From a virus (lineage: Duplodnaviria > Caudoviricetes), in IMG/VR virus record IMGVR_UViG_3300025097_000039, positions 1 to 28,084 of that record: a stretch of 28,084 nucleotides of DNA. One strand, given 5' to 3'. The position numbers and the translations under genes were made by a program. This document shows positions 43-28,084 of this stretch, piece by piece; within the stretch, counting starts at the first letter, position 1, and every line of letters starts with the position of its first letter. The notes beneath the pieces are model-generated. The model searched no databases. It had not been told where the DNA came from and was given only the letters and a program-made list of their open reading frames with translations.

Positions 43-840
43 ATGACCAAATATCAGTACCCAATATCTTATACTAAAGATGAAGTCCCAAGGTGGGTGA
101 ATCTTAAAAACCGTGCATATGCAGGAGTCGCAACACTGCGGGGAAAGGACGATGGCATTGGTCCGGTTAATGAAGAGTTGGAGATAAACATAAATCTCCC
201 CAAAGAATTTACCTTTAACGATAGATCGCAATATCAATATGGGTATACCCAGTTAATGAATCCGTTACGGAATCTTATGGGGAATGTAGTCGAATCGAGT
301 GATTGGCTTGACGGCCTTGTAACGATATTAAAAAGATCGGCGAGTGCTGCGGTTGGTTGGGTGGATGTGCAGGCCGGGGATAGTGTTTTTCAGGGCGCTG
401 ATATTAGAAAATTTCATTTTAATTTTGATATGGTCCCTAAAACTATTAAAGAAGCCGAATCTATAAGTAAAATGTGTCATTCACTTCGAAAACAGGTGTA
501 TCCAACTGGTACAGTTGGTTCCGACCTTTTTGGTGCCATTCATCCCAGTCTATGGGATATTGAAATTGTAAAAAGTCCCGGCGGAGAAAAAGATCCCGAA
601 TGGGATTTAAATTTTCAACTTGCCGTTTTGGCTGAATGTATTATTGATAAAATGCCGGAAGGACCACGGGCAATAAGTAATCAAGATGCTTCTAAATTCA
701 GTCCGTCTGCTACAAAATTAACATTAGTATTTTTTGAATTAGAGCCCAATTACTTCGACGAGGACACTAAAGAGGCTGTAGCAAGATCAAAATTGGGTGT
801 GTTTGCACAATTATTTGATAAAGCAGCAAAGGTGGGATAA
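43..840 (+). CDS. gp48: Baseplate tail-tube cap protein, T4 gp48-like
   Basis: Motifs VFQGADIRKFHFNFDMVPKTIKEAESI, HPSLWDIEI and TKLTLVFFELE match the gp48/gp54 tube-fold family as I recall it. It lies directly upstream of gp53. Confidence 0.8.
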   Translation: MTKYQYPISYTKDEVPRWVNLKNRAYAGVATLRGKDDGIGPVNEELEININLPKEFTFNDRSQYQYGYTQLMNPLRNLMGNVVESSDWLDGLVTILKRSASAAVGWVDVQAGDSVFQGADIRKFHFNFDMVPKTIKEAESISKMCHSLRKQVYPTGTVGSDLFGAIHPSLWDIEIVKSPGGEKDPEWDLNFQLAVLAECIIDKMPEGPRAISNQDASKFSPSATKLTLVFFELEPNYFDEDTKEAVARSKLGVFAQLFDKAAKVG

Positions 841-886: not shown

Positions 887-1843
887 ATGTTTTTAGAATT
901 GTTTCCAAAAATTTTCAATTATGATTTAACCGGAACCACGGGTGGTATGTTGGTAGATCTTGGTAATGTGTTTCAACGAGTTCGTTTCTCGAAAACGACC
1001 CTCTCAAATCACAGAATATATATCGATTATACAATAAAAGACGGAGAATCTCCCGAGGATGTGGCTATAGATTTTTATGGAAGTTCTCGATGGTTCTGGT
1101 TAGTTTTAATGTCTAATGACATTATTGACCCACTAGAAGAATGGCCAAAAAGTTCTTCCCAACTTCAAAGACAACTAAATAGTGTTCTTTATTTTGGAGG
1201 GAAATCATATTTTATAAATGACATTAAAGATTTTAAAGTAAATGATGTTATCGCCCAATCTGAGGGATGTACAATGGGCGAACCAGGATGCCCAGACGGA
1301 GTAACATCAAGCATGGAAAACTATGCAATAGTTGATGACTGGGATTCTAATTTTTTTAGAATAGATTCTTCCAGAATCGTTGGCTCTTTAAACGAAGACG
1401 ATTATATTACAATATTCCGAGAAAATGATTCGGGAAAAATAGATATGATTTCTGGTAGTACTGCATGTACAAGTAACATATTTCAATCCCAAATAAAAAA
1501 ATCAATTGATACAAAAGAATCTATATCGGCCTTTTATCAAGATGGATTTATCGTAAATCCATATGGAAGCACAGGGAACATAAATGATATCAATTACCCA
1601 AATGGAGACACTGGAGGATTGTGCGATTCTTCTGATTCTGTTTTATATCATTATATAAATGGATTGGATTATTCTCCAGTGGATTCTGAAACAATTGAAA
1701 ATAAATTGTTAGCAGAAAACGACTCGAAAAGGCAAATAAAATTAATTCATCCCCACTTTAAAGAAAAAATATTCAAAGAAATAAAAAATTTAATACAAAC
1801 ACCTGGTCAGAGAGGAAAAACTGTTTTTGTTGAAATAGGATAA
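887..1843 (+). CDS. gp53: Baseplate wedge subunit gp53 (LysM-like fold)
   Basis: YTIKDGESPEDVAIDFYGSSRWFWLVLMSNDIIDPLEEWP and C-terminal ENDSKRQIKLIHP are gp53 hallmarks. Confidence 0.9.
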   Translation: MFLELFPKIFNYDLTGTTGGMLVDLGNVFQRVRFSKTTLSNHRIYIDYTIKDGESPEDVAIDFYGSSRWFWLVLMSNDIIDPLEEWPKSSSQLQRQLNSVLYFGGKSYFINDIKDFKVNDVIAQSEGCTMGEPGCPDGVTSSMENYAIVDDWDSNFFRIDSSRIVGSLNEDDYITIFRENDSGKIDMISGSTACTSNIFQSQIKKSIDTKESISAFYQDGFIVNPYGSTGNINDINYPNGDTGGLCDSSDSVLYHYINGLDYSPVDSETIENKLLAENDSKRQIKLIHPHFKEKIFKEIKNLIQTPGQRGKTVFVEIG

Positions 1844-1850
1844 TTTTATT

Positions 1851-3803
1851 ATGGCAAATGAATATACAAGAGATGGCGATATTACAATAAATGAAATTAT
1901 TATTTCAAAATATGACTATGATTCCAAATCCATTAAAAACTCATTATCGATAGTCCCATCCGAAACTCAAAATATATTAGCAGCATTGGTTTTAGAAGAA
2001 AGTCTTTTTTCTCCTTTTGTTCGTGGTTCTTTAATAATAAAAGAAACTGGATTAATTTTTGATGAATTCAATTTTACCGGTGAAGAAGTTATTTCTATTA
2101 AAGTAGAAACTCCATCTGTGGAGAATTCTACCATTGAACTTGTGTTGTGCGCATATTCTGCCCAAACAATAGGAGATATAAATTCTATTCATGAGAAAAT
2201 TAAATTTCCAACAACCACTACTGGAATTTTTATATTAATCGAATTTGTTTCTTGTGAATATAATATATTAAGCAATTCGGAGATTGAACTAACTGATGTA
2301 GAATTTATAGGGAAAATATCTTCCGATAAAGAATCGGGATTAGTACAAACCATTCAAAGAAAATATTTTTCCGACGAAGAATTTGATGCAGAAAATACTG
2401 AAAATGCTGTTTGGTTTAAGAAAAATACAAAATCATATCCTTGGGGCAAACCAGAAGAGTATGATCAAACAGTTATTCAAACTTTAATTAATCTTTCTGA
2501 AAATTCTGTTCCCGAAGACAATTCATATGCTCCTAATTATTTATTTTGGAGGGACTTGAAACAATGGAGATTTAGATCTATTGAGAGTTTGTTGGGGGAA
2601 GATACCGTTAAAACATACAACACAATCGGGTCGAAGGAGGGTATATTAGAATATACAACCAAGATAATATCGTTTGTTGCCGAGGAAGATAATAACACAT
2701 TAAAATTGTTTGACATTGGTGCTTTTAATTCACATTATGATTATATAAAACCGAATTACGCAAATCCTTATCTTGATTATATTGATGTTCAAGATTCTAT
2801 CCTTCAAGAAAGAATAGAATTTAACTATTCGGATGAATTTGGAAAGTGGAAAACAGTAGAAGAAAATCCCCTGGTACAAGACGAATATACTAAAACTTAC
2901 AACAAGAAAATTAAACTGGGGGATAACATCTATGGTTATTTCTCTCCCAAATTTAACAGATTGTACCCAGTGCCAACCGACCGTTACGAAGATAAATCTG
3001 GCGAGGCAGAAGAAAAACAATGGCAATGTATATTTGACCAAACCGACTTAGACTATGAAAAATTAAAAACAATAAGAAATGATATTAAAGGTCCGGTTGA
3101 AGAATTAAAAGAAGAATATAGAAAAAAAATAAATCTAAAAACAAAATGGGACATTTATGAAAACCGAATCTGCTGTGCGAAAAAACCCATAATAAAAGAT
3201 CACTTCTTGGCCGTTATCGAGGAATCGAAATTTATTCCTGTCGAAGAATTAAACGAAACTCGCGGGGGAATTTATGAATATAAGTGGAGAGAAGTTGAAA
3301 TTTGGCCTAAAAGTTTTGTTGAGGGATATGAGGATGATATCGAAACTTTCAGTTCTGATAATTCGCCATTGGTGGTTGTTAGTGTTCCCGAGGGACTGTC
3401 CGGATCGTATCAGGAAGAGGGGGACATAGAATGGTCAAGACCTGCCTATAACATTAACGAATTAATGAACACCAGACCAGAGGGAGCAACTGCTGATGAT
3501 ATATTTGTTGGACCTGGGGTTAATGTTGCGAGTGAGAAACTAAACCAATATCCCAAAGGACATCAAATGATGCCTATTGGTGGTTATTTTAAAGTCGAAG
3601 ACAATCCATGTGATATAGATCACGAAAACATAGAAGTTAATTTTCATGGGCATGTCGTACAGATGTATAGAATGCCAAGTTATATTTTAAATTCCATCCA
3701 TCCGCAAAAAGAAGACGAAGACTCTCCTGATCCGTTAATTCCAAAGGATATATATTTCTTTGATGTGGTGAACGCTCATGATGGATTATGCAGGTGTAAA
3801 TAA
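1851..3803 (+). CDS. Baseplate hub (gp27-like) N-terminal part, followed by a helical stalk and an extra C-terminal domain ending NAHDGLCRCK
   Basis: LEESLFSPFVRGSLIIKET...FTGEEVISI, IEFVSCE and YLFWRDLKQWRFRSIESLL match the hub-like protein that follows gp53 in marine T4-like phages. The expected C-terminal G-x-[YW]-L-I-x-x-I-x-H motif is absent from this ORF. Confidence 0.65.
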   Translation: MANEYTRDGDITINEIIISKYDYDSKSIKNSLSIVPSETQNILAALVLEESLFSPFVRGSLIIKETGLIFDEFNFTGEEVISIKVETPSVENSTIELVLCAYSAQTIGDINSIHEKIKFPTTTTGIFILIEFVSCEYNILSNSEIELTDVEFIGKISSDKESGLVQTIQRKYFSDEEFDAENTENAVWFKKNTKSYPWGKPEEYDQTVIQTLINLSENSVPEDNSYAPNYLFWRDLKQWRFRSIESLLGEDTVKTYNTIGSKEGILEYTTKIISFVAEEDNNTLKLFDIGAFNSHYDYIKPNYANPYLDYIDVQDSILQERIEFNYSDEFGKWKTVEENPLVQDEYTKTYNKKIKLGDNIYGYFSPKFNRLYPVPTDRYEDKSGEAEEKQWQCIFDQTDLDYEKLKTIRNDIKGPVEELKEEYRKKINLKTKWDIYENRICCAKKPIIKDHFLAVIEESKFIPVEELNETRGGIYEYKWREVEIWPKSFVEGYEDDIETFSSDNSPLVVVSVPEGLSGSYQEEGDIEWSRPAYNINELMNTRPEGATADDIFVGPGVNVASEKLNQYPKGHQMMPIGGYFKVEDNPCDIDHENIEVNFHGHVVQMYRMPSYILNSIHPQKEDEDSPDPLIPKDIYFFDVVNAHDGLCRCK

Positions 3804-6589
3804 TGACTTCATATAATGGTTGTTGCTGTGATTGCTACAAAGAACCCTCGGCTTATATTACCTTTAATGTGCCGACAAAGATGTCAAACCCGTCAATTTA
3901 TGAATATGGTCCCGGACTTCATCTTTTAAATGAGTACCATTTTCACCATCCCAGCAACACAACGTGTAATGATTGCCCTACTTATGAGGACATATACGTC
4001 CCACAATATAAAGAATATCTCTTTTGGATGTCAGAGCACACTCCCTGGTGTTTATTAGACGAAGACATAATACACCCAAAAGTAAAAGCAGAAACATATC
4101 AAATAGATAATCAATATGTTGATTCGGAAACAGGATTAGTTAGAATTGGATTTGAATGTGTTGTTGATTTTCAATGGAATTTATATGATATTGACGTTGC
4201 ATGCGAAAATAAAGATGAAATCCAACGTTATGATTTGAATTCTTATTGCGGTGCTCATCCAGAAAGAGGAGCACAACAATCTAATTGTGTTCGAGGTTGC
4301 GTTAGCCCCCTTAATCCAGATGCGCTATATGATACTGAAGATTGTGATTTTACAGAGCCAGGAAATGTTTGTTTAAATTACCAATGGGCATCAGATTGTG
4401 AAAGTACATGTTCTAGTTTTTTCCCAGAATTTAATGGTGGGTGTGTATACAATCCTCCGGATTGTTACGACTTACCGTTTTTAAAGTTTGATACGACCAA
4501 CCACGACATTTGTGAAGGATTACCAAACTTAAGTAAACCCGGAAAAAATATAGATTCATTAACAGAAACTGTAAATAATGTTTATGGTTCTCTCATAGAA
4601 CGATTTGGCCCTCAAATTTTAGAAGATGGAGAAATGAATCCATATCCCCAGAATATTATTTTCATTTCTGGTGTTGAAGACACTTCGAGATATCACAAAT
4701 TGTGGAGATGGGATTCTTGGAATGATCCCGGTTATACTGGACCCAAAGATTGTTATGGAAATGAATGGGAATTACATAATGTAATTCCCATGTTAGACAG
4801 TACTACTCCTTATCATGCCTTCCCTGGATATGAAGACCACTCTGATTTTAATAATGATCCAAGGGGTCTAAACCCATTCCCCGAACAAGTTTCGGCTTTA
4901 TTGGGTGAACATATATTTTACTATAAATTAAAAAACAAATTTATAGAAGAGTGGGGAGAAGAAGTTGCAAATTACAAATTTAATGCCTGTCCTATAGGTG
5001 TAAATGAGGAAAATTGCTTTGGTCATTCGTGTTTAGAATCGTATGGGGGAAAAACTGGATGCTATACAACAATATCATCTCCTGATGATCCAGTTCCACA
5101 AAATGTCAGTGTAGATAAATTCTTTAATCAATATAACCATTGGCCTCATTTTGATGCCGACAAACCCGCAGAACACCCCGGAGACCCGTGGGAAGATTAT
5201 TATTGTAGTCTGGTTGAATGTGGCGATGATCTTCTTGGTGGTGAATTTTTGAATTTTAGAACTTGTGCTCGCGGATTTCCGTGGAATGACTCAACTTTTG
5301 GTGGTTATGCTTGGTCGGCGCAATACTCACCTTCTGATGGAATACAACGTGATCCATGTCGCGTTCCAATTCCGTGGGTAAATCCACACACATGGGAATT
5401 GGAACCTGCTCCGGGAAATTACAGAGAAAATGATACTCTTGTTCGTGGTACGGCAGACAGGGATAATATCCTATTAGTAGATGTAAATGAAACAACAAAA
5501 TATATGAAAAATTTCACAGAAATTTTCAAAACAAAACACCGTAGTCCCTGCTATCACACAAATATAATAGAAGACGAAGACGTAAATATATGTCCATGTG
5601 ATGAAGAAAAATTATATCAGGCAAATTCCTTTTTTATAGAAAAAATTAGTCCTGCAACATATCCACATTGTGCTGTGTCGTGCGAAGAACTAAATATAAA
5701 TTTATTTATTGGAGGCACAGGACCAAACGATTTTAATATTCCTCCGAATTGGGAATGTGACCCATTGTATTATGGCTATAATGTGATGGATTATTGTAGT
5801 GGGATGGCAGGCGGTCCAATACCTGCAAATGAACTTGGAGATGATTTTAGGCCAGATTACACAGCATATTCTACTGGAAACACCGATGATATTAGAGGTA
5901 AGGTATCTGCTGGTATAAACGTTAATGATCACTTTGTTACCTTTCCTTTAGTTTGCGACCAAACAGGATTTCCAGAGTATAAATTACCAACTCGCTACAG
6001 AAACATATACACCCACACTGGTCGTTGCTATTGTATAGACCCCGCATGTACAGACGATGATTTTGATGATGATTTTTGTTGCAACGAACCAGATAATTGG
6101 CACTGGGATTCTGAATTCTTTTCTGAATTGATGGATAGTTGTAGATCCCCGTTTCTTGCAACACAATCCATTCTGTGGGGTTACTTTTTCTCCCTTGGTA
6201 GTACTCAATATTATAATGATCATTATCTTGAATATATTAGTTCAGCACACCATTGTATAGACCGTTTTGGAGAAGATATATCAGCAACTGATGCATTCCC
6301 TGAATATTGGTGGGAACCCGGAATGGATTTATCTTCTGGAAATTATCCACTCACACCACATGATTTTATGTCATTTGACCAATGTGGCCGATGGACCAAC
6401 GCAGGCCAACCCCCCGTCCCATTGGATGACACAAATGTTCCAAATGAAAATTGTTCAGATCTAGATTGTTGGTGGATAAGTGGTGCTGACACATATGAGG
6501 ATAAAGGAACTCTCGTTTTTGATGAGTGTGGTTGCTGCTCTTCGACTCATGAAAACACAGATCTTTCAGAAAATTGTAGTTATTTCTAA
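3803..6589 (+). CDS. 928-aa acidic, Cys/Trp/Tyr/Pro-rich hypothetical protein, probably virion-associated, with N-terminal CCCxC
   Basis: Long ORF coupled to the upstream gene by a TAATG overlap. Starts MTSYNGCCCDC and ends DECGCCS...NCSYF. No family recognised. Confidence 0.85.
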   Translation: MTSYNGCCCDCYKEPSAYITFNVPTKMSNPSIYEYGPGLHLLNEYHFHHPSNTTCNDCPTYEDIYVPQYKEYLFWMSEHTPWCLLDEDIIHPKVKAETYQIDNQYVDSETGLVRIGFECVVDFQWNLYDIDVACENKDEIQRYDLNSYCGAHPERGAQQSNCVRGCVSPLNPDALYDTEDCDFTEPGNVCLNYQWASDCESTCSSFFPEFNGGCVYNPPDCYDLPFLKFDTTNHDICEGLPNLSKPGKNIDSLTETVNNVYGSLIERFGPQILEDGEMNPYPQNIIFISGVEDTSRYHKLWRWDSWNDPGYTGPKDCYGNEWELHNVIPMLDSTTPYHAFPGYEDHSDFNNDPRGLNPFPEQVSALLGEHIFYYKLKNKFIEEWGEEVANYKFNACPIGVNEENCFGHSCLESYGGKTGCYTTISSPDDPVPQNVSVDKFFNQYNHWPHFDADKPAEHPGDPWEDYYCSLVECGDDLLGGEFLNFRTCARGFPWNDSTFGGYAWSAQYSPSDGIQRDPCRVPIPWVNPHTWELEPAPGNYRENDTLVRGTADRDNILLVDVNETTKYMKNFTEIFKTKHRSPCYHTNIIEDEDVNICPCDEEKLYQANSFFIEKISPATYPHCAVSCEELNINLFIGGTGPNDFNIPPNWECDPLYYGYNVMDYCSGMAGGPIPANELGDDFRPDYTAYSTGNTDDIRGKVSAGINVNDHFVTFPLVCDQTGFPEYKLPTRYRNIYTHTGRCYCIDPACTDDDFDDDFCCNEPDNWHWDSEFFSELMDSCRSPFLATQSILWGYFFSLGSTQYYNDHYLEYISSAHHCIDRFGEDISATDAFPEYWWEPGMDLSSGNYPLTPHDFMSFDQCGRWTNAGQPPVPLDDTNVPNENCSDLDCWWISGADTYEDKGTLVFDECGCCSSTHENTDLSENCSYF

Positions 6590-6610: not shown

Positions 6611-7456
6611 ATGGTTCCAGACTTTTTTATACAACTTTCATCTTTTGCCAACAATACATGGCCATCAATGAGAATTGGCCATTCTACCTACGGTTATGAT
6701 GAAACTGCTAGATGTTCAAATCCAGAGGATTTTGTAGACAACAGTGAATGCTCAGAAGATGAACCATACTGCAATTGTCCGTGTCAAGATCTAATACCCA
6801 GAAAAGAAACTGTGTTTTTTGATGAATCTGATAATATAACAGACGGAAATCGGTATAAAGTTTTAAGTGAAGGCGGAGATGAAGTTAAATCATTTAACAA
6901 TCCAAATGATGCTCATGATTGGATAAAAAGTAATGGGGAAATGGATCCCAGACCCACAGACGAAGAATTAAAAGAATTAAGGGAATCGATAGACGAATGT
7001 TCTTTAATTGAAAGCAATCTGGGGTCCGAGTGGTTGGGATGTGATTGGAATAATCCGGAATCAGAGTTAAATTGTTCGTGTCCATGTATTAATTCAAAAT
7101 TTAAAGATTATTTAGAATATAATAGAACATATGCGATGTATTGGAATACCCCCAAACATACCCCGTTATATCGAAATATGTTGATGAGCACCATTATGTC
7201 CAAAAAATCTATATTAACGGCGAATGGAGATTTCTCACTACGACCTGGAAATGTTATTAAAATTGAAGATAATTTCAAATTTAAATCTTCTCTTCCTGAA
7301 AGAAAACACAACGGAAAATGGTTAATTTCAACAATAGAACATATTATCATTGGCACCACAAATCATACTATGAACATTTCTCTCCTTCGGGACACAAATC
7401 GATTTGATTCCTTAGACTCCCACTTTAAAGAAATAGATGTAGAAATTGAAAATTAA
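6611..7456 (+). CDS. Cys-rich N-terminal region fused to the C-terminal part of the gp27-like hub
   Basis: C-terminal ILTANGDFSLRPGNVIKI...HNGKWLISTIEHII...HTMNISLLRD matches the terminal motif of gp27/Mu-gp44/GpD-type hubs. The N-terminal part has CNCPC and CSCPC. Confidence 0.7.
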   Translation: MVPDFFIQLSSFANNTWPSMRIGHSTYGYDETARCSNPEDFVDNSECSEDEPYCNCPCQDLIPRKETVFFDESDNITDGNRYKVLSEGGDEVKSFNNPNDAHDWIKSNGEMDPRPTDEELKELRESIDECSLIESNLGSEWLGCDWNNPESELNCSCPCINSKFKDYLEYNRTYAMYWNTPKHTPLYRNMLMSTIMSKKSILTANGDFSLRPGNVIKIEDNFKFKSSLPERKHNGKWLISTIEHIIIGTTNHTMNISLLRDTNRFDSLDSHFKEIDVEIEN

Positions 7457-7485: not shown

Positions 7486-7890
7486 ATGCCTGAAAAAATA
7501 AAATATTCCGATGTTGATTTTTCGTTCTCTAAAAATAGTTTTAGTGATGATGTTAACATTAAAACAAATGAAAATTCGATAAAACAATCTATTAAGAATA
7601 TCATATTAACCCATAAGCAAGAACGACCATTTAAATCTCGAATGGGGTCCAACCTCGCTGATATATTATTCGAATTATATGATCAAGGATCTCACTATTC
7701 TTTAAATAGTGAAATTAGGGACCAATTAGAGATATTTGAACCTAGAGTATTGTTACAAAAAGTTCGTATTGACGATTCACTTATCGACCAACACATTTTA
7801 AGTTTTGAAATTATTTTTAAGTATATTATAGGCAACCCAAAAGAACCAGTTCAAGATTCATTAGTCCTTTCAATAGAGAGAGTAAGATAA
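7486..7890 (+). CDS. gp25: Baseplate wedge subunit gp25
   Basis: YSDVDFSF...SIKQSIKNIILT...ERPF...GSNLADILFE...FEPRV...SIERVR; 134 aa; directly upstream of gp6. Confidence 0.95.
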   Translation: MPEKIKYSDVDFSFSKNSFSDDVNIKTNENSIKQSIKNIILTHKQERPFKSRMGSNLADILFELYDQGSHYSLNSEIRDQLEIFEPRVLLQKVRIDDSLIDQHILSFEIIFKYIIGNPKEPVQDSLVLSIERVR

Positions 7891-15654: not shown

Positions 15655-16890
15655 ATGAATAGTTGTTCAAACACATCAAATATAACCCCCAATCTCTTAG
15701 TTCGTGATTTACAAATCAATTCGGGATCTCGGTTGTTTGTTACCATTAATGAGAGTGGATTTTCTGGTGGTTTTGATTCTTCATTGGGCGGAGTAACGGG
15801 TGGTGATGTTATCTTTTATGATGTTCGTAGCGGAAGTGTCAGTGAAAACAAATTTGCCAAGGCTAGAGCCGATTCTCCTGCGACTTCTGAAGTTTTTGGA
15901 ATAATCGAAACTGTCGATGACGACATAAATTATGCCAACGTGGTTATTTCGGGACTTATTGTGTATCCTTCAGAACAATTTAATTATGTGCCTGATGCGG
16001 ACGGTAATACTGGGGGGCTTGGTGGCGGGAATGATGTATTTTTCCTTAGTGGTATAACTGCTGGCGAACTAGAAAATCTTGCACCAACAACCCAAACATG
16101 GATTACAAAGCCTCTCCTTTCCAGGACTAGTATTGATGACTATAACGGTGTAGTTTTAAATTATATCGGTTATGAAGTTGGCGGAGCGGTAGCAGGAGAA
16201 GACTTATCTAGTCCTCCAGTGGGAAGTTTAATTTATGTCCCAACGGATCTGGTTGAAGAAATTACTTCTAAAAATGACACATGGGTGGATGCAAGAAGTT
16301 CTCATGAACTTTCTACTACAACTTATCAATCGTTATATTCTGTATATAAAGACTCTTCGGGTAAACCAAAATATGGTTATATTGAAGAAGTCGAACTTAC
16401 TTCGGAATATAATGCTAATTTGTCACACAAAAGTAAAAACATATCACAAGGAACAGGAACTTCTAAAACACAAGGAACAATTGAAAATGTTGATTTGGTT
16501 AATAACAAATATGAAATTAAAAAGAAATCAACTGAGGACAATTTCAGCAGTTCAAATTCTTTTATTACAATTCATAAATCAACATCTAAAGCAAAATCAA
16601 ACGGAATGACCAAATTTTTCACACCCCAATATAAATCAACAAGCGATAGTATAATTGATGTTTTTGGTTCTCCAACATCCATTCAGATGGTTCCCCTCCT
16701 ACGAATCAAGACAACACAAGCAGTCTATGTACCTAGTAAAGTTTCTGTAGAAGAATTAGAAGTTAGAGACATCTTAACAGCATCAACAACAAATACCTCT
16801 GCTACAACACCAACAATCGACGATATTGCTCTTGAAATTAGTAACTTGAAAGATGACGTTGCTCTTTTAAATTCAAGAGTGATTGGATAA
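15655..16890 (+). CDS. Tail fibre-associated protein with a degenerate tail-collar-like domain and C-terminal coiled coil
   Basis: PPVGSLIY...W...STTTYQSLYSVY...YG resembles the phage tail collar motif. The N-terminal domain is paralogous to part of the upstream gene. Ends IALEISNLKDDVALLNSRV. Confidence 0.55.
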   Translation: MNSCSNTSNITPNLLVRDLQINSGSRLFVTINESGFSGGFDSSLGGVTGGDVIFYDVRSGSVSENKFAKARADSPATSEVFGIIETVDDDINYANVVISGLIVYPSEQFNYVPDADGNTGGLGGGNDVFFLSGITAGELENLAPTTQTWITKPLLSRTSIDDYNGVVLNYIGYEVGGAVAGEDLSSPPVGSLIYVPTDLVEEITSKNDTWVDARSSHELSTTTYQSLYSVYKDSSGKPKYGYIEEVELTSEYNANLSHKSKNISQGTGTSKTQGTIENVDLVNNKYEIKKKSTEDNFSSSNSFITIHKSTSKAKSNGMTKFFTPQYKSTSDSIIDVFGSPTSIQMVPLLRIKTTQAVYVPSKVSVEELEVRDILTASTTNTSATTPTIDDIALEISNLKDDVALLNSRVIG

Positions 16891-16894
16891 TGTT

Positions 16895-19867
16895 ATGCCT
16901 ATATTCCATGGAAGTAGTTATTACCACATAGAAAAAGGCCGAACAGGACCAACAGGGCCAACAGGACCAACTGGTCCTGGAGGGATAATGGGATTTGATA
17001 TTGGATCCACTGGTTCCACCGGTCCTTCAATTGTTGGAATAACTTTAGATTCTAACCAAAGAGTATTAACAACATTCATAAATGCTGATGGTACTACTTT
17101 TGGTGTGACCACCAATAATGAAATTGTTGGTCCTCCCAACAATGAAGTTAAATTGTTTGTTGCTGGGGAAAATGTTTCTGGTGTTGCCGGGGCTACATTA
17201 TTTAAAGAGAGTGTCGATACAAATTCGTTAACACTAAGGGTACTTGGTTCATCGGGTGATGTCTCTCTCCACACAAACGAAGAAGGGATTGAAATTATTT
17301 TCGATAGGGGAACCTTTGGTTATGTTAATGTAACGGGGGGCGGAGAAACTGGAAATATAATTGGTGTTAATTCTTCTGGAATAATTACGGGAATTCCTCG
17401 AACAAGATATAATCCATCAGAAGAAAACACAAGAACACCATTAACTCTTGTTAATAAAAATTTTGCAGAATATTTTTCCCATAAAGAAAGAACAACTAAG
17501 AATCCAACAAACGAAGAAGGTTATTATGTTGAAGACAGAGAAAATTCAATAGATGGGTTGACTGCATTAAATGTAGAATTGTTTCCATCAGAAATTAAAA
17601 ATCATCATAATGTATATTTTGATATTCGTGGCTTAGATAATTCTGTGAGTTGGGGCATTTCTGCTTCTGATAAGTATGCAGCGTGTTTCTTTGATATACA
17701 ATCGCCTCCTGAACATCTCCGGACCCAAACCAATACATTTATGTTGGTTACTGATGGTGTTAGTGGATCGTCTCAAGTTGGATTTAGTCAAAATGTTATA
17801 TTCCCGTTTGAAAAGGAACCTTGTTTTAGTGGTGGGATTGATATTACAAACTTCTTTTCAAAAAATAACATTTGGTATGGGATACCCGTTTATAGAAACG
17901 GGGAATTCGACGAAGATTCTTTATTCTCTTGTAAACCAGTCTCGGCAAATGCTAGTAATTTAGGTAGTACTGGAGCATGCTGCCAAGGAATTGATGATTG
18001 TATTCATATCGAACAATCATTATGCGATGGGTATTTTTATGGTTCCGGAACTACATGTGGATATACAGGAAATAGTGGAAATACTGGAAACATTTGCTAT
18101 GGTCGAGGAGCCTGTTGTATACGAAAAGTTGGTTCTCAAGAAAAATTCATTTGCTATGATAATATTACAGCAAACGAATGTATAAATTTTGATTTGTTGG
18201 ATGAATATGTTGCTGTGTATAACGGCGATGGGGTTAAATGCACAGACACGGATTGTAAATTCACCGAGATTAAAATGGGATATTGTTGTGATGGTCTGGG
18301 ACACTGTGTCAATGGAATATTAGAAACTTGCATGGATCATGGATTCTTTTTTGGAGAAACCGGCACTCCTTGTCAAAGCAACGATTATGGCCTTTATAAG
18401 TGGGACACGAGCAACAAGGAAACCCCCTGTTCTTCTGGAACAGGAGGTTGTTGTATAGATAAAATTTGTTATGATAATTATTCATATACAGACTGCATGA
18501 AAGGTGGTGGTTTGTTTGCGGGTGCTGGATCTTCGTGTGATTATATTAGTTGTCCCTCCGTCAAAGGTAATTTAAGCCGAGAAGAATGTTCGTTTTTGGT
18601 TGATGGAATACCATTACAGACTGGCGATCTGTATGCTGGTGGTATGGTGGTTGGAATGTTTAAACCCGGTCAAAGTATGTGTTTTGGTGCCACTGCGTTT
18701 GGTGGAAGAAACACCGATTATAGATCACTCCTTAATGGGAGCAATGGGGTCAGTGGTGGTTTGTATGTTAATAAACACGATTATCACGGTTATGGATTCT
18801 CGTTGGACCAATCAGAATACTCTCAGGAAACCATAACAAATCCAGATTCATATCTAATGATTGTTTCGATGGAACCTATTGCAATAACGGGAGACCGTGA
18901 AGTTGTGACATACCCAGAATCTTCGGGTGCTACTACAGAATTCTATTGGAACAACAACGGAAGTTCTTGGGGACCATTATATAACCAATATGGTGAATAT
19001 GATGATATTTCGCTTGATTATCATAAAAGATTCTTAAATTATAAAGAGGGATTTTGGTACAATTATAAACAAGGACACCTCTCGTTGGAAGATGTGGTTT
19101 CTAATACCTTTACGAGTAAGAAAAAAGCACACGCTAACGGTGAATACCCATATGAAAAATTACTAACTCGACCTCTCCAAAATGCAAATGGTATGTGGCA
19201 CAGAAACTGGGGTCTTTATAATTCAATTCGAATGGTTTCAGCAGATAATATTCTCCATGAAGGATATACAGGAGAGTATTCATATTCCTCATCCGATTTT
19301 GGTCCTGGATTAACTTCAGATTATATCTCTGCAATTCGGGCCACTCGTCTATTAGATGATGGTTTAACATCTGACTCACAAGGAATAACAGGAAACCCAG
19401 AAAATGTTTCAGGGTGGTATATCCCCAGTTATGATGAACTTTCATTCTTAGCAGCACATTGCTTATTGGATGATGATAATCCACACGGATTTAACTTAAA
19501 TATAGAACTAATGAAAAATGATGGTATTCCTTTGGGGGGTTATCATTGGTCATCGACCGGTTCTTTTGATGAAAATAATATAAACATATTAACAAATGTG
19601 TTCCCAACACTTCCCCATGAGGGTTTGTTCACAAATGAAAACGATATGGTCGCCGGAAGCGTTGCTTGGAGTATGAATTTTGATCTAAACGGAATTTCAA
19701 ACAATTTCATAACCAAGAAAAAGAAAAGAACAGAAGAAACCTGTAAGGTTAGACCCATTCGTTTGATTCGTTGTGATACTAGATATTATGGAGCAACTGG
19801 CGATGGGAATACTTTATGGAATATTCCTCCTCTATTGAAGGACAAAAACAAAGAGATTAATCAATAA
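16895..19867 (+). CDS. Long fibre/adhesin 1: collagen-like repeat, 4 GxCC repeats, DUF1566/CLec-like C-terminus
   Basis: The ATG at 16895 (MPIFHGSS) is preferred over the TTG at 16883 because it aligns with the paralogue starts. Motifs: GPTGPTGPTGP; GACC, GACC, GYCC, GGCC; GWYIPSYDEL, YHWSST, AWSMNF, KVRPIR. Confidence 0.8.
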   Translation: MPIFHGSSYYHIEKGRTGPTGPTGPTGPGGIMGFDIGSTGSTGPSIVGITLDSNQRVLTTFINADGTTFGVTTNNEIVGPPNNEVKLFVAGENVSGVAGATLFKESVDTNSLTLRVLGSSGDVSLHTNEEGIEIIFDRGTFGYVNVTGGGETGNIIGVNSSGIITGIPRTRYNPSEENTRTPLTLVNKNFAEYFSHKERTTKNPTNEEGYYVEDRENSIDGLTALNVELFPSEIKNHHNVYFDIRGLDNSVSWGISASDKYAACFFDIQSPPEHLRTQTNTFMLVTDGVSGSSQVGFSQNVIFPFEKEPCFSGGIDITNFFSKNNIWYGIPVYRNGEFDEDSLFSCKPVSANASNLGSTGACCQGIDDCIHIEQSLCDGYFYGSGTTCGYTGNSGNTGNICYGRGACCIRKVGSQEKFICYDNITANECINFDLLDEYVAVYNGDGVKCTDTDCKFTEIKMGYCCDGLGHCVNGILETCMDHGFFFGETGTPCQSNDYGLYKWDTSNKETPCSSGTGGCCIDKICYDNYSYTDCMKGGGLFAGAGSSCDYISCPSVKGNLSREECSFLVDGIPLQTGDLYAGGMVVGMFKPGQSMCFGATAFGGRNTDYRSLLNGSNGVSGGLYVNKHDYHGYGFSLDQSEYSQETITNPDSYLMIVSMEPIAITGDREVVTYPESSGATTEFYWNNNGSSWGPLYNQYGEYDDISLDYHKRFLNYKEGFWYNYKQGHLSLEDVVSNTFTSKKKAHANGEYPYEKLLTRPLQNANGMWHRNWGLYNSIRMVSADNILHEGYTGEYSYSSSDFGPGLTSDYISAIRATRLLDDGLTSDSQGITGNPENVSGWYIPSYDELSFLAAHCLLDDDNPHGFNLNIELMKNDGIPLGGYHWSSTGSFDENNINILTNVFPTLPHEGLFTNENDMVAGSVAWSMNFDLNGISNNFITKKKKRTEETCKVRPIRLIRCDTRYYGATGDGNTLWNIPPLLKDKNKEINQ
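16937..17028 (+). repeat. Collagen-like G-x-T triplets (fibre 1)
   Basis: GRTGPTGPTGPTGP...GSTGSTGPS. Confidence 0.85.
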
Positions 19868-22800
19868 TGATAAACGGAAGTAGTACAATACCAACCATAG
19901 GAGCAATGGGACCAACCGGAAACACTGGTCCTGCTGGTCTTGTCGGAGCCACAGGTTATACTGGTACAACGGGTTCAGTGGGACCAAGGGGTATTGGTAT
20001 TATTGGTGCTACTAGTGAAGGTAACGATAAAGTTATCTTTGAATTGACAGATGGAACAACCATTGGAACTACTGGATTTCGGGGATTAACCGGAGATCCA
20101 AATGATGCCCTTATCGAAGTTTTAAGTACTAAAGAAGGAAGCACATATGGAATTGTAATTCAAGGAACATCTGGTTCAACTGCATATTTTCGGGGAATAT
20201 ATTCTTCTGGTGATTTAACAATCGATTCGTCCACAGACACTATTGTTATTCATGGTAATGAATACACATATGGTATAATTGGTAATACTGCAAACAATTT
20301 CTTGTATATGAACAGTGGGAACAGTGCTCAGGGAACAGACGAATATACTAAATTTGATCATTTGGGTTCTGGTTTCACATACGGAAATTTATATCATTTA
20401 GCAGGAGAATTTAGAGAAGACAGTTCAAGCGGAAATATCATTTCTGATCCCGCAGTACCACCAACAAATTCTCATGAAATCACAAATGACTTTACAGACA
20501 CCGAAAAATTTAGATCTATACCATTTTCACATTATGGAGACAACGGTAACACATATGGTATTAATTTAGGAGTTTCTGGTGGAAGTGAAGAAGTATATTA
20601 CTTCAAGAAGACTGAAAAAATAACAGATCCATTTCTAACACCATATTCTTATAATTTTGGTTCTTGTTGTTTATGTACTGATGATGATAACGAAGAAACT
20701 ATAGACCATCTCTGTCTTGATTATGTAACTGATGCATATTGTGATTCTGTTGGTGGTGTTTTTGATTTAAATTCTTGTTATAATAGACCAGAAGGACCGG
20801 ATTGTGTTTCGAGTGGTAGTTGTTGTTTGTGGGGACGTTGTTACCCAACAACAAAAAATAACTGTGACACTCTGAAGGGATCATTTGCATCAGTTCCGTG
20901 TGGTACATTCGAATGTCCTGATCCATGTAGTACAGAAAATAATGCTTGTTGTATCGAAGGAAGTTGCTTTAACTTTACACAAGAAATTTGTATTGGTGTT
21001 GGTGGTGTGTGGTATGATATGATTTGCAATGATGCCCTTTGCTGTTTTGGTGGACTTCAAACAGGTGCTTGTTGTCACAACGAAGTTCCTCCTTGTGATG
21101 ATGAAGGAAATTGCCCCACAACACCAGAAGGAATAAAAAGATGCATGCAAATGTCTCCGCCGATGTGCTCAGAGACGGGTGGGGCATTTTATGGTTTCAA
21201 TACTTTATGCTGCACACCAGACTATATGGATGCGGGATGTGTTGAATGCTGCTCCTTCCCAGGAGATACCCAAAAAAGAGCATGCTGTGTTCCTGATTCA
21301 GAAGGAGAAAATTATACCTGTGTTCATGTAACGGAGAATGAATGTTTTGTGCAAGGTGGTATTTTTAATTCTCAATTACCAACTTGTATTGGTTCTCCCT
21401 GCTCACAATATTCAGGCGGAAGTGGTGGTAGTAGGTCATCGAATCCATTCTCCTCAGAAACTCCAAATTGCAATCCTTGTTTAACAAACGAAAGACAAGA
21501 GAAAACTGTTCAGTATGTGCCGGGCAAATACTACGAAGAATTGGGTGGTTATTTTATCGGTTATGTTGGTCATGACGATACTTGTGATTATGGAGATGTG
21601 TTGGGTGACCATCGATATCCTCTTGCTAAAGGTCAAATTAAAAAACAAATCGAAAAACATTCTAGAGATACCATCAAATATCTCCCCGGAATGGAGTGGG
21701 AATCTTTAGACATCAATTCTGATAACCCCGGTCCAAAATTGTCTAATGGTAAAAATTATAAAAACTACTCCGACCTTTACAGCAAGACCCCAGAAGAACA
21801 AAATAAAGATATTAATTATGGTTGGAATCCGTATGAAAATCACATTGCCCCTGATGTAGTATATTCATACACACTAACTAATTCTGATCATGTTTCAAAT
21901 CTTTATTCTGAAGATTATGATATTTGTTCTTTTAAACCAGATTTTGATTCCCGTTGTGCTACTCCTTCGGGCGATAATCAATTCTTGTATAATGTTTACT
22001 ATCCATATCTTTATGGTTGTCCATATGGATATAACGTATCGCCCGGTGAAGGTTATTATCAAGATTTCTATGTTGAAACTCCATACAGTTCATATTGTAA
22101 TACACATAACAAATGGGATATAAATTCAAAGGGTGAACAGATATATCCTTCTTTAATGTCTCTATATGGTTGGACTGAAGGAACAAGAAACAACCCGATC
22201 CATCCACATAATCCTCATTATACGCACTTTGCAAATAAAATTTACGGAAAGGATAAACTACATCGCCGCTGGGCTCTAGTGTTATCTCCCGTTGATATCG
22301 TAAACCCCAATAAAATTGATTCTGATATCAATTATATGTTAAACTGGGGGACAATGCAGAATGCTAATATAAATGAAGATGGTTCGTTTGTTGGTGATAT
22401 AATTGAAACAACGGAATATGATGGTTTATTAAATACAAGAATGTTTGATGACACATCATATAAAGAAAATTTATGGTTCTTTGGAGATGGTAAAGATTAT
22501 GAAAGATGGAATGCTTCATTTTGGCCTGACTCCGTTTCTTCAACAGATATTAATAATTCTTCAGAACAATTTAAAGAATCGTATCAGGAATATTGGGAAA
22601 CGATTAACCAAAACAATTCCTGTTTGTGGAATGTCTCAAACATTAACAACACGGGAGTAATGAACGACGGAGAACGGTTTGATTATCAAACTAATTATTC
22701 GGATTGGTATATCCCAAGTCTCACAGAACTAAATTATGTTTATTGGGCTACGAAAAACACCAACTTAAATAATCAACTGATTGGTAATGGTCATAAACCT

Positions 22801-23346
22801 CTAGTAGAAGATACATATTGGTCTTCTACAAGTGCTGACCGATGGTACGTCAATCCGTTTAATGGAAGTCATGTTCGACCAACACATATGAAATTTAATT
22901 GGGATTGGGATTCGTTTGAGGGACATGACGGAAATATGGGTCCAAGTTATCATCACATTAATGATTTTGATTCCATTTGGAATTCGCTGCCCTCCGACGA
23001 TTCAAATATAGATAAAGATGAAATAAGAAGAAAGGCTGGGAATGCCCACAGGATGTCATGTCAAATATTTAATGGATATCCCCATCCCGGACTAAACCAT
23101 CATCATTGTGGATATGATTCCCAAAGCCTATGTGAAGGTATGACAATTACCCCACTTCGTGATGAGGAAGTTGCTGCACTAAGATTAGTTAGAAGAGTTT
23201 TAGTATATTCAGCAGACACAGATACATGGATAAACGATTATGATCCGGGAGATATTAGTATTTCCAGAAAACAATATAATAAAGAAAATTCATGGAAAAA
23301 CGACAATTCGATAGATGATGGTATGAGAGGCTGTCTAAATAATTAA
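19867..23346 (+). CDS. Long fibre/adhesin 2: collagen-like repeat, 5 CC repeats, DUF1566/CLec-like C-terminus
   Basis: TAATG-coupled to the upstream gene. MINGSS...GPTGNTGPAG; GSCC, GSCC, NACC, GACC, RACC; DWYIPSLTEL, TYWSST, LRLVRRV. Confidence 0.8.
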   Translation: MINGSSTIPTIGAMGPTGNTGPAGLVGATGYTGTTGSVGPRGIGIIGATSEGNDKVIFELTDGTTIGTTGFRGLTGDPNDALIEVLSTKEGSTYGIVIQGTSGSTAYFRGIYSSGDLTIDSSTDTIVIHGNEYTYGIIGNTANNFLYMNSGNSAQGTDEYTKFDHLGSGFTYGNLYHLAGEFREDSSSGNIISDPAVPPTNSHEITNDFTDTEKFRSIPFSHYGDNGNTYGINLGVSGGSEEVYYFKKTEKITDPFLTPYSYNFGSCCLCTDDDNEETIDHLCLDYVTDAYCDSVGGVFDLNSCYNRPEGPDCVSSGSCCLWGRCYPTTKNNCDTLKGSFASVPCGTFECPDPCSTENNACCIEGSCFNFTQEICIGVGGVWYDMICNDALCCFGGLQTGACCHNEVPPCDDEGNCPTTPEGIKRCMQMSPPMCSETGGAFYGFNTLCCTPDYMDAGCVECCSFPGDTQKRACCVPDSEGENYTCVHVTENECFVQGGIFNSQLPTCIGSPCSQYSGGSGGSRSSNPFSSETPNCNPCLTNERQEKTVQYVPGKYYEELGGYFIGYVGHDDTCDYGDVLGDHRYPLAKGQIKKQIEKHSRDTIKYLPGMEWESLDINSDNPGPKLSNGKNYKNYSDLYSKTPEEQNKDINYGWNPYENHIAPDVVYSYTLTNSDHVSNLYSEDYDICSFKPDFDSRCATPSGDNQFLYNVYYPYLYGCPYGYNVSPGEGYYQDFYVETPYSSYCNTHNKWDINSKGEQIYPSLMSLYGWTEGTRNNPIHPHNPHYTHFANKIYGKDKLHRRWALVLSPVDIVNPNKIDSDINYMLNWGTMQNANINEDGSFVGDIIETTEYDGLLNTRMFDDTSYKENLWFFGDGKDYERWNASFWPDSVSSTDINNSSEQFKESYQEYWETINQNNSCLWNVSNINNTGVMNDGERFDYQTNYSDWYIPSLTELNYVYWATKNTNLNNQLIGNGHKPLVEDTYWSSTSADRWYVNPFNGSHVRPTHMKFNWDWDSFEGHDGNMGPSYHHINDFDSIWNSLPSDDSNIDKDEIRRKAGNAHRMSCQIFNGYPHPGLNHHHCGYDSQSLCEGMTITPLRDEEVAALRLVRRVLVYSADTDTWINDYDPGDISISRKQYNKENSWKNDNSIDDGMRGCLNN
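19900..19992 (+). repeat. Collagen-like triplets (fibre 2)
   Basis: GAMGPTGNTGPAGLVGATGYTGTTGSVGPRG. Confidence 0.85.
23335..23341 (+). promoter_or_regulatory. Candidate late promoter CTAAATA
   Basis: TAAATA core about 25 nt upstream of the ATG at 23367, overlapping the end of the previous gene. Confidence 0.45.
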
Positions 23347-23366
23347 TAACATTTGGAATTCTATTT

Positions 23367-26300
23367 ATGGTTTATATTGGAAGTAGCCGCATCAATGCGA
23401 GGTCAGTTGATGGTCCAACCGGACCCACTGGTCCAATTGGACCTATAGGACCGACTGGACCTTATCTTGGTCCTTCTGGGGACACTGGACCCACTGGGCC
23501 TACTGGTTTTTATGTTATCGGCGGTGAAACTACAGAAAACTTATTAATTTTAGAACTGTCAAATGGTGTTACCTTTGGACTGTCCGGATTGACAGCAGAA
23601 AACATTTCCATATATGATGCGTATGGTATAACATTTGAAATCCCTTCGGGTAATACTGGTGCTGATATTTTTAAAGAAGCACTGATTGGAAGTTCTGGAA
23701 CCACATTTTATTTTAAGAGCATTACCGGAAGTGGTTCTATTGAAGTATTACAAGAAGACGATGCTATTATTATTGTGGGTAACAATGATGCTCAAAATTC
23801 AGCATATGGTACACTAGAAAACGAAAAGGTTATAATAACTTCTTCGACTGATGGTTCGTCCAATCAAGACGAAGCAATGACTTCTCTTCTTGATTATGAT
23901 TCTTCTAGTGGAGTCATGGATTTTGAATTTAATAATACATTAAACCCGTATGCACTAAATACACTATTAATCAATTCAATTGAAAAAACACAATGGGCTG
24001 GTATAACCGGGGGAGATTGTTTAGGTGGTCCTTGTGTTCGAGGCGAAGGAATTTTCCTAGACATTACCAACACCTCAATTATAAAAATCCAAACACCAAT
24101 TGGTATCCAAGGAGTTACTGGAGATTTTAGAAGTGATGAATATCTATCATTTACTGCACTAATAGATGGAAACGAAATTTGGGACACTCCTTCTGATTTT
24201 AAAATTGAAGAAAATACATCGTTAGGTTGTGGTTTAAATGTTCTTCATTTTACCAGAAAACCCAACGAAGATTGGGAAATTGTTCTAGTTTCTAAAAATC
24301 ACGAAAAAGAGAGTTGTGAAATCATAGAAGCCTCTATTGGTTCTTGTTGCTACACCGAATATGATGAACAATCACAGCAATATTTTGATGCTTGTGTTGA
24401 TTATGTGACATATGATTATTGTATTTCTGAATTGTTAAATCCAACATTTAATTTATTAAGTCCTTGCTCTTTGAGTTGTTTTGGTGATGATGGTGAAATA
24501 TTAAATGGAATTTGTTGTCTTGGTGGAGATTGTTTTGATGACATATTGAACACAAAATGTTATCAATTTGGTGGAACATTTTGGCCCGAAATCCCTTGTC
24601 CTACAAAGGGTTTGTGCTGCGCAAACGATGGTGTGTGTATTGGAGACGTAACTTCTTTTTATTGTGACAGTAGACCCGGTGTTTGGTTTGATTATGAATG
24701 GGGTCCAAATTGTAGTTGGTGTGATGTAACAAATCCCGGAATATGTTGTGTAGATCAAGAATGTATAGAAGTTCCAAATGAACACCATTGTGATATTCTT
24801 GGTGGTGTGTTTTATTCTGGGGAACAATGCGGCGGAGACATATGTGATTTAAATGCTATTGGTTCTTGTTGCTTAGATATTAATTCCACTAGTGATATAA
24901 CATGTAAAGATACTGATGATTCTGATAATTTGATGACCCGAGGAGAATGTTTAAGTTTAGGAGGAACATTTAAAAATAATGTTTCCTGTTCTGAATTTGA
25001 AAAATGTTCTGTGGGGGCGTGTTGCGACAAAACAAATACAGACTGTGAACACACATGCTCCGAAGAAACGGGATTTATATGTGACGGCGGTGGTAATTCG
25101 TTTTATAGCACCAGAGAGTGTAGTAGTTTATCCTACGATGAATGCAATACATCGTTAGGTTGTGGTTTTTGTTGTAAATATTCCTATGTGTGTCAAGATG
25201 GTGTCGGGATTTGTGATTGTGACCAAGTCATGCAGTGGTATGAATATAAAGCAGTAACGGATGAGACGGAAGGGTGCACCGGAGGCTCGATGGACCGGTA
25301 CTTCATAACATGTTACGAGCACAATCCTGAATATTCGTGTGATAATATCTCGAATTCGGCCTACGTACCCTGTGGAGCCTGTGACGATCCCAATGATTAT
25401 AAGAACCCGTGTACTTCGGGGGGGTGCGAGCCGGGCGATGTTTGTGGCTGCCGCTGCGGGTACTGCCAACCTGATGCGGATTGCCCCTGTGGTGAACCCT
25501 GCGACTGTAGGTCGTTTGCTCCAATTCCCGGCGACGAGACAAGCAATTGTATTGACTGCGATATAGTAGGAGAGGATTTCTGTTGTGACCCATGTGATGA
25601 ACAGGGTGCTTGTTGTGTAAATATAGAAACAGAAGATTCTCTTGAAGACGAGTATGTTTGCGTTCAGCCAACACTACAAGATGGAACGCCCCATGGATGT
25701 ATTAGTGAACTACAATGTCAACTCTTGGATGGAACGTGGATTCCTGGTGCCACTTGTGGTGTTGTTGATTGTTGTGATCATGTTCCCCTAGAGGGTGCTT
25801 GTTGTACATTATGGGGGAATATACAACAATACGAATGTATAATTTCAACCCAATACGAATGTGCTGGTATATTCATGGGACACGGTTCCGATTGTGATAA
25901 TGATTTGTTGTGCGGATGTGAGGAATTTGGTGCTTGTTGTTTGAATGAATTTAATTGCATAGAATCAAGCGGAACATATTGCTCTGAACAGGGCGGAATT
26001 TTTAATGTTAATAGGTCATGCTTTGATGTTGATTGTGAAGTACTATTTGCGTTAGGTGCATGCTGTGATGAATATTATGGAACATGTGAGGAAACAGAAG
26101 AAGAAGAATGTGTAGGAGAATATAAAACTTGGAAGGGCGGAGGAACGCCCTGTTCTTGTCCTTTCGGTGATAATGATTGCACATATAGTGCTGTTCAAAT
26201 AGAGGAAACTGGAGTTCCCGAAAACCCAATAACAGAAACATTCAGTATTTTATTGGACAACAGAGCAACCAACGAAACATATGACACTTCATTTTTACAA

Positions 26301-28084
26301 TATGATGGATGGCCTCAATTGTTGTATGCGGATTCTTCAAATCAAGAGGGATCGATATGCTTAAATCAAAATGAACCTGATAATATATTCCATTGTATGG
26401 ACTGTCATCCAGAAAATTACCCTCAATATTCTGTTAACTATGAATGTACATCTTGTGCTGAATTTGGTGAGTGTTATCTTCCTCCAAATGCACGCTGGGC
26501 ATCAACAATAAATAAACAATCACCATTGATTTTCTTTGATGGTATTGAAAATGACGTTAATTGGAACACAAGAAACACAACACCCGAATCGAATACCTAC
26601 ACAAGAGGTGCTTGTGAATTTATGATGGGTATTTTTAACCCACCAACCGCTCCTGACCTTGATAAAATTGTTTGTTGTACATCAACGCATGGAATTATTG
26701 AAACCGATAATTGGTATGATTGTGTCTCATATGATTATCTTTATAGTGGAAAATATGGTGTGCCACTTTCTCCAAGGTTTACTTCTATAAATGAAGTTCC
26801 TTTAGATATTATAAGCAATTTAGAATGTGGTGATATTTCTTCCGATGGATGTTGTTGTGTTCATACCAGAGGAAATTGTGATTCTGTTTGTGATATTTCG
26901 TGCTTTCCATATGACGAAACGACATGTTTAGTATATAACAATGACCCAAATAATGCAATATGGCATGCTGGTTTATCATGTGATGATAGCCCCTGCCACA
27001 AAGGAACGTATTGTTGTTCCGATGGTTCCTGTGAGGAATACACATATGCCAATTCGGGTGGGGGCTGTGATACTTGTGATCCTGTTAACCAAACGCCATC
27101 TCCTTCGAGCGCTTGTAGTGGAAATATGATATCAGAAAATGATGCTACATGTTGCAGTGATGGTTCTGTTGAATGTGATTTACCTATTTTCGACTGTTTG
27201 GTTGATGATCTTGGTACATGTTGTTGGGTTGAAGAGGGGGATGATATTGATTCTAAGTTAGATCCTACCAGAGGAACTTGTAGTTGTGGTGATCTCATGA
27301 CTATTGAAACTTGCATGGATCTACACCCTCATTTTGGAACCTCATGGCTAGATATAGGTTATTATGATGGTGGCGGTGGGGAGGATTGGGAACACACTGA
27401 TCAGAGGTGTAGTCGATATGGGGATATGATAAATACCGACGACATAGATTGCTTATCGTGTGCTGGTTGTACTGGTTGCTGTCAAATGACAGGAATATTT
27501 TATAATTCATTGCCTTGGGAGATTATGTACTTTGCCGGAGGGGGCTTGGCCACACCTTCTATTCCGTATGGTAGTATGCAGTTTGTTGATGAGAATTCAT
27601 TTTTACATAATTCAGAAGATGTAATACTCCAGCCTGAAAAACTTGAAACAAGTATTAATGAATTTTGCTTTTGGGATGATGCAGAAGTTGGTGATTGGAG
27701 AACCATACTGCATTCTTCGTTCTGGGCTGGTCCACCTATAGCAATATACCCAGCAAAAGATCAAAGTGGTCCCATGGATAATATAGGTCTTGGAAAATAT
27801 AGAAAACCAAAACCAATAGATTATGCACTTGGAGAATGCTGTCTAAATGGTAAATGTTATATGGAACATGGTTGGTGTTGTGGCAACAGTGGATCAAACG
27901 GTTTGGGCGTTCACGCAGACAAAGAAGTCTGTTCAGAACTTTCAGGTATTTATCCTAATATAGATGATTGGGCTTGTATTGATGATTGCGAGCCAATACT
28001 TTCTCAAACAAATTACGATGATGTCCCCAGCCGTTCATGCCGTTCATTTTTTACAAGGTCGTATTGTGAAGATGAAATTGGAGG
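23367..28084 (+). CDS. Long fibre/adhesin 3 (partial, >1570 aa): collagen-like repeat and at least 13 GxCC repeats
   Basis: Absent from the ORF track, presumably because it has no stop in the window. Hand translation runs [31 protein letters not shown]... and stays open through ...RSYCEDEIG at the window end. Confidence 0.9.
   Translation, partial: [1572 protein letters not shown]
23412..23507 (+). repeat. Collagen-like triplets (fibre 3)
   Basis: [32 protein letters not shown]. Confidence 0.85.
24213..25168 (+). repeat. Exact 23-bp direct repeat AATACATCGTTAGGTTGTGGTTT, copies at 24213-24235 and 25146-25168
   Basis: Read directly. Both copies are in the same frame (NTSLGCG) and 933 bp apart. 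Confidence 0.9.

Follow-up and report, generated by a model that had tools for sequence, protein, structure and literature searches.

The window analysed here, a stretch of 28,084 nucleotides from a virus recorded in IMG/VR as IMGVR_UViG_3300025097_000039, contains a T4-like baseplate module, and all of the module features located below lie on the plus strand. A gp48-like baseplate tail tube cap (43..840; phrog_230, E 1.9e-12) and a gp53-like wedge protein (887..1843; PF11246 and phrog_232) are followed by ORFs of 650 aa (1851..3803), 928 aa (3803..6589) and 281 aa (6611..7456), and then by the gp25 wedge protein (7486..7890; PF04965), gp6, and further wedge and fibre genes. Profile matches to the hub family phrog_350 were divided between two of these ORFs, with residues 22-355 of the 650-aa product aligning to family positions 14-306 (E 5.5e-14) and residues 181-262 of the 281-aa product to positions 342-427 (E 4.4e-8). 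Complementary parts of phrog_350 are therefore carried on two genes, and the T4-like baseplate hub is split around the material between them: its N-terminal part and a linker are encoded at 1851..3170 and its C-terminal part, with a Cys-rich N-terminal extension of its own containing two CxCPC motifs, at 6611..7456. In all three reference phages (HTVC008M, phiM19 and Cba120) phrog_350 was intact as one gene. PMC3004832 gives the second barrel of T4 gp27 as residues 207-239 plus 307-368, and since that barrel is built from two segments the split plausibly falls, by analogy, before the last of them. Elsewhere in the window (16883-28082) three large tail proteins of 994, 1159 and more than 1572 aa each start with a collagen-like stretch and contain many GACC-type cysteine repeats, with no family recognised besides the collagen part. 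Short tail sheath proteins (376-432 aa) were seen in G001-G003 (e.g. L381:6947-8074), and G003 carries a long series of glycosyltransferase and nucleotide-sugar genes.

The material lying between the two hub parts consists of a domain, here called the dock domain (3171..3803), and a gene whose product begins with a cysteine tag. The domain forms the C-terminal end of the 650-aa ORF, whose sequence finishes ...YFFDVVNAHDGLCRCK; its terminus NAHDGLCRCK is encoded at 3771..3800, and the chain stops three residues past Cys647 (3789-3791), the proposed docking cysteine. A TAATG sequence (3801..3805) joins the two genes, such that the TAA of the 650-aa ORF shares one base (3803) with the ATG of the 928-aa ORF, which opens with the tag MTSYNGCCCDC (3803..3835); the overlap reported by the first-pass annotation was thereby confirmed. 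That annotation had also marked out a distinct C-terminal domain of about 210 aa, and the domain proved to be real: residues 441-650 (210 aa) were kept in 21 of 21 close relatives by alignment, and its AlphaFold2 model was mostly beta with a mean pLDDT of 86 and a pTM of 0.83. A wider search gave 43 matches, from which P0041, P0054 and P0061 were removed as unrelated. All 33 rows of the domain alignment (33 of 33) shared the N, G and C of its terminal motif, and in 79 of 80 T4-like loci the N-x-x-D-G-x-C motif was no more than 90 residues from the C-terminus, the remaining locus being truncated. In 76 of these 80 loci the domain was hub-fused, the other four being short ORFs near contig starts. 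With respect to known families, the domain had no match in Pfam, in PHROG or among the cultured phages of INPHARED, and sequence searches of the PDB gave nothing useful, with a single weak lectin match (E 0.008). A portal-like identity suggested by ESM Atlas matches (0.90, with low recognition) was rejected; for the stand-alone form described below, the Atlas returned unnamed viral clusters only. Two loci (L064 and L070, P0048) have a 69-aa Cys-rich extension fused past the terminal motif, possibly a fused mini-cargo; their contigs are short and showed no CCC gene.

The fold of the domain was examined with models of both the window domain and the stand-alone family (pLDDT 87). Foldseek with the domain model found no match in the PDB and, in BFVD, two uncharacterised phage proteins of 170-206 aa. 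When the models were compared with 48,161 chains, P2 gpV ranked first for each, at Z 4.6 (rmsd 3.2, 76 aligned residues) for the window domain and Z 5.5 (rmsd 3.5, 73 aligned residues) for the stand-alone form. Spike or baseplate entries filled the top seven rows of the former search and the top five of the latter, and several of the highest-ranked baseplate chains appear to be spikes. These Z scores are middling, under 8, and non-spike OB folds rank close in the stand-alone search, where a DNA ligase at Z 5.0 lies less than 1 unit below gpV and in effect ties with it. The top-50 lists of both models are dominated by what we take, from their fold names, to be OB-type barrels, and the dock domain is predicted to be, and likely is, an OB fold carrying insertions. 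The structural match ends at gpV residue 84, right before the N-x-x-D-G-x-C motif, which is where the gpV beta-helix presumably begins; the dock domain has no beta-helix.

Gene position agrees with that of a central spike. HTVC008M and phiM19 show the order gp48, gp53, intact hub and then gp5, and the place beside the hub and before gp25 is shared by their gp5 slot and the dock domain, the slot here being occupied only by the domain and the CCC gene. The ORF list of the window held no gp5 gene between the hub genes and gp25. A search with the Gp5_OB family matched no control, and phrog_430 was used for gp5 instead; it matched none of the three long contigs of the T4-like group (123, 119 and 146 kb; 68, 65 and 80% complete) as against both of two controls, and no gp5 family was found in the 158 ORFs scanned, a subset of the ORFs of those contigs. 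Conversely, five complete canonical T4-like genomes contained no dock domain and, with seven of eight in-frame matches read, no CCC-start ORF longer than 75 aa. Because of its rank in the fold comparison and its gene position, we infer that the dock domain descended from gp5/gpV. The earlier proposal of a domain grafted onto a T4-like hub should thus probably give way to one in which the OB base of the spike stands in place of gp5, rather than a foreign graft.

The association of the domain with CCC-start genes was scored in the best 80 of 131 IMG/VR loci of the T4-like type. The next gene after the domain was a CCC-start gene in 50 of these, the hub C-half in 29 and truncated in one; counted by distinct domain, the figures were 29, 25 and one. 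The hub C-part lay downstream in 38 of the 50 loci with a CCC gene next, and immediately next to the domain in the 29 others. The one-base overlap was present in only 5 of the 29 distinct adjoining pairs, the others having gaps of 2-21 nt, so that obligate translational coupling was rejected and the coupling read from the window is incidental. A whole-contig search of the 29 loci without an adjoining partner showed that six hold an unlinked long CCC-start gene, about 7-16 kb from the domain and representing about four lineages. By a hand count, the sequence upstream of the domain reaches 17 kb or more in precisely those six contigs, and amounts to some 12 kb at most in the remaining 23. The three long contigs each contained exactly one domain and one CCC-start gene, despite many Cys-rich genes. 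With unlinked and non-adjacent CCC genes in hand, a reading in which the pairing is facultative was dropped; adjacency is dispensable, and the partner can sit 0.6-2 kb or about 7-16 kb away.

Other features of these T4-like loci were recorded alongside. The Cys-rich N-terminal extension of the hub C-half, with CxCPC motifs, was seen in the window (6611-7150) and in L001-L051, and the CxCPC pattern was found in none of the group of loci with adjoining hub halves. In loci without an adjoining CCC gene (L052-L080, e.g. L052:4696-6492) gp53 was mostly about 600 aa, versus 310-350 aa, the insert resembling RCC1 repeats by eye. Four loci (L013, L028, L045 and L046) have a second very Cys-rich gene, with 16-18% Cys and CC near its start, placed after the CCC gene and ahead of the hub C-half.

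The tagged proteins themselves were highly diverse. The cargo in the window (3803..6589), with 50 Cys among its 928 aa, had no Pfam match and fell into a BLAST family of six with the cargos of L001, L005-L008 and L011. Altogether 87 cargos formed 32 BLAST families in which the tag was the only common element, although cargos that look unrelated may be Cys-rich homologues past the reach of BLAST. Only 6 of 15 domain pairs with at least 80% identity shared a cargo family, and domains 97-99% identical were paired with cargos lacking BLAST similarity, which bears out the suggestion that the cargo is variable and swapped. CCC was the sole invariant element in 32 aligned cargo N-termini, a set selected on CCC, and its first cysteine was residue 7 in 16 of the 19 distinct tags from T4-like loci; of the CCCxC tag as first described, the CCC stands and the full pattern does not. 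Pfam searches of 29 other cargos named only RCC1 repeats, in three of them, and no PAAR match was obtained in these or in the window cargo. One RCC1-type cargo occurs in both small and T4-like phages (E 1e-36 to 4e-51). Cysteines abound along the whole length of the cargos, a composition that would be expected of disulfide-bonded extracellular proteins, and the position and variability of the cargos suggest a possible part in receptor binding. A DYSGS motif in the cargo of L015 and L025 resembles a von Willebrand A metal-adhesion site, and Pfam gave no confirmation.

The domain was also found on its own. A DNA pattern linking the terminal motif to CCC gave 56 loci, from which 20 distinct stand-alone proteins of 155-295 aa were retained. 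Their profile aligned with that of the hub-fused form over 119 columns (HH probability 98.6, E 1e-15), a match that stems partly from selection on the motif, the upstream motifs not having been selected. The order of genes in the scanned neighbours was major tail protein, chaperone, tape measure, a protein of 260-340 aa without recognised family, the domain and the CCC gene. Searches with the protein preceding the domain, at 270-300 aa, gave no assignment. Two unrelated types of phage thus have the domain in their tail-tip gene modules. Six further loci (L470, L210, L496, L500, L501 and L505) have it at the C-terminus of proteins of 750-1250 aa, family not recognised, after the tape measure region. 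The domain is therefore portable, as had been surmised, occurring hub-fused, stand-alone and in other fusions, and with a homologous stand-alone family in existence the reading of the domain as an ordinary hub extension was rejected.

To score the stand-alone association independently of the tag, a pattern scan free of CCC was used, which gave at least 120 loci, with flanks for 80; a profile lacking the motif confirmed 87. Among the matches listed, 37 of the 43 confirmed loci with at least 1 kb downstream, found without using CCC, had a CCC-start gene on the same strand within 2.2 kb downstream, eight of them adjoining, as against none of 14 unconfirmed control loci, which are random viral contigs rather than Cys-rich relatives. 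Omission of the six loci that had trained the profile left 31 of 37 of the listed matches with a CCC gene, all downstream. Six stand-alone loci among the matches listed had more than 2 kb downstream and no CCC gene; in two of these six the tags were CWC or CC, with the first cysteine kept and the domain cysteine intact. The strong association proposed between domain and CCC-start gene accordingly extends beyond the T4-like loci, and neither of the outcomes that the first-pass annotation had named as refuting was obtained. In many of the small phages (L143, L151, L170 and L189) the domain and the CCC gene are separated by small membrane-like and lipoprotein-like genes, possibly for lysis.

With respect to host range, the stand-alone family was detected in 19 of 401 Phycisphaerae, 1 of 401 Planctomycetota and 0 of 401 Acidobacteriota genomes, where the class and phylum names are those of the centre genome of each set. 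Several of the matches adjoin tape-measure genes on contigs of 0.1-1.3 Mb. The T4-like profile, in contrast, matched none of the 401 Phycisphaerae genomes, and the Cys-rich tail stretch matched none of five genomes. The link to Planctomycetota that the first-pass annotation had mentioned holds for the stand-alone form, by way of Phycisphaerae. A pattern scan of GTDB gave mostly chance matches, with 2 of 120 confirmed; both were on short MAG contigs, so no host was inferred from them.

The 24 Phycisphaerae matches were tallied by hand as 16 Cys-ended domains, six Cys-less, one broken and one without downstream DNA. A CCC gene was present within 0.7 kb in 12 of the 16 Cys-ended cases, with four lacking CCC, and in none of the six Cys-less cases, where the next gene had a CC tag in five. 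At four loci the domain ends in NGVYEESA and the next gene reads IRQSRCCKC or LRRERCCKC. Both align in register with HRAGCCCGC, and in this clade an Arg thus appears to have taken the place of the first tag cysteine. A further locus of this clade, from a metagenome, again combined a Cys-less domain with R-C-C, and a viral locus ended too early to be read. The Cys-to-Arg change belongs to one clade, of 57-85% identity. Overall the terminal Cys was lost at seven loci in three lineages, and no partner there keeps CCC; counted by lineage the joint loss gave a Fisher p of 0.036, with about three lineages (one clade and two other losses).

On balance, we consider it probable that a spike-base OB domain without a needle docks variable cargo through the CCC tag, probably as a trimer and most likely by a disulfide. 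The domain would form the base of the spike at the tail axis, probably as a homotrimer, and the tagged protein would be physically bound and fixed at the point where a needle would otherwise begin. Once the virion meets oxidising conditions, the terminal cysteine of the domain could form a disulfide with the first cysteine of the tag, leaving the other two to bond within or between cargo chains. The cargo may then act in host recognition or envelope entry.

The same dock and cargo could instead be held together through a metal site (Zn, Fe or an Fe-S cluster) formed jointly by the terminal Cys and His of the domain and the cysteines of the tag, a reading we regard as unlikely. The hub-fused form does end with H and CxC, and three adjacent cysteines would suit a multi-ligand site, but the His and the second Cys are missing from most stand-alone forms. 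Precedents for metal at the tail tip exist, namely the iron-sulfur cluster that lambda gpL binds through four cysteines (PMC10721106) and the Fe held in the P2 spike apex (10.1101/2023.02.25.529910). The loss of the domain cysteine is nevertheless accompanied by the loss of one tag cysteine, and in one clade an Arg stands opposite a Glu-Glu end, a pattern better suited to a one-to-one bond; the cysteines found throughout the cargos likewise resemble those of disulfide-bonded extracellular proteins. The joint loss of cysteines and the change of the first Cys to Arg therefore favour a disulfide over a metal site.

Less probable still is that the domain is no more than what remains of a spike base and closes off the hub, its cysteines bonded intramolecularly, while the CCC protein attaches elsewhere, for instance to the CxCPC motifs of the hub, or to itself, and the two genes co-travel from one Cys-rich lineage. 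The tail of these phages is Cys-rich throughout, the partner may be unlinked, and CxCPC motifs occur in the hub C-half of most CCC-adjoining loci and, by pattern, in none where the hub halves adjoin; yet the pair persists in small phages without a T4-like hub, each long contig has a single CCC-start gene despite many Cys-rich genes, and loss of the domain cysteine tracks cysteine loss in the tag.

Docking of a tagged cargo onto a needle-less spike base, the reading favoured here, can be set against several known systems. Likeness to T4 gp5, P2 gpV and the spikes of R2 pyocin and phi92 lies in the predicted OB fold and the gene position beside the hub, and in T4, according to PMC3004832, the OB fold serves as the adapter that links gp27 to the beta-helix. 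Unlike these central spikes, the dock domain has no beta-helix, lysozyme or apex and ends a few residues past its last strand in a cysteine motif; it carries large insertions, shows no sequence match to gp5/gpV families (Pfam, PHROG or PDB sequence), and occurs also in tail modules where only the major tail protein, chaperone and tape measure are recognised. VgrG of type VI secretion, a gp27-gp5 fusion, likewise unites hub domains with an OB fold in a single polypeptide, whereas here the OB fold precedes the last hub part, encoded by a gene of its own, and the needle is absent. The OB fold is thus not preceded by an entire gp27-like hub, as it is in VgrG, phrog_350 positions 342-427 being on the downstream gene. 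PAAR proteins carry variable cargo and a metal site, and PAAR and T4 gp5.4 resemble the tagged proteins as separately encoded products that would cap the spike axis; the cargos described here, however, share only a tag of about 10 residues, with no folded PAAR domain and no beta-helix end to cap. The Fe-S domain of lambda gpL offers conserved cysteines in a tail-tip protein (PMC10721106), but its four cysteines are in one chain and those described here are split over two gene products, and the dock domain had no sequence match to gpL. No description of the pair was found in the CC-licensed PMC and bioRxiv literature searched. The dock domain and CCC gene are a real, widespread module, undescribed in those sources, that would work like a spike-plus-tip pair.

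A broader reading, which we put forward tentatively as a possibility, is that a needle-less spike base and a CCC tag of about 10 residues form a covalent plug-and-socket by which any of dozens of unrelated cargos (120 to more than 2,600 residues) can be mounted at the tail tip, common to contractile phages of the T4-like type and the small phages of Phycisphaerae, the contractile lineage infecting without a gp5 needle, lysozyme or PAAR. The pair is small, with a 120-residue domain, a 10-residue tag and a natural compensated mutant, and may serve as a covalent protein-coupling tag. It also allows phages of Phycisphaerae, a group in which few phages are known to have been studied, to be recognised by sequence. 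Contractile tails are regarded as having an invariable beta-helix needle; if the broader reading is true, a T4-like lineage that retains the spike base only, with variable proteins attached through a short cysteine tag, would have a different tip architecture, and the module would represent a new way of swapping tip proteins that is common to unrelated tail types.
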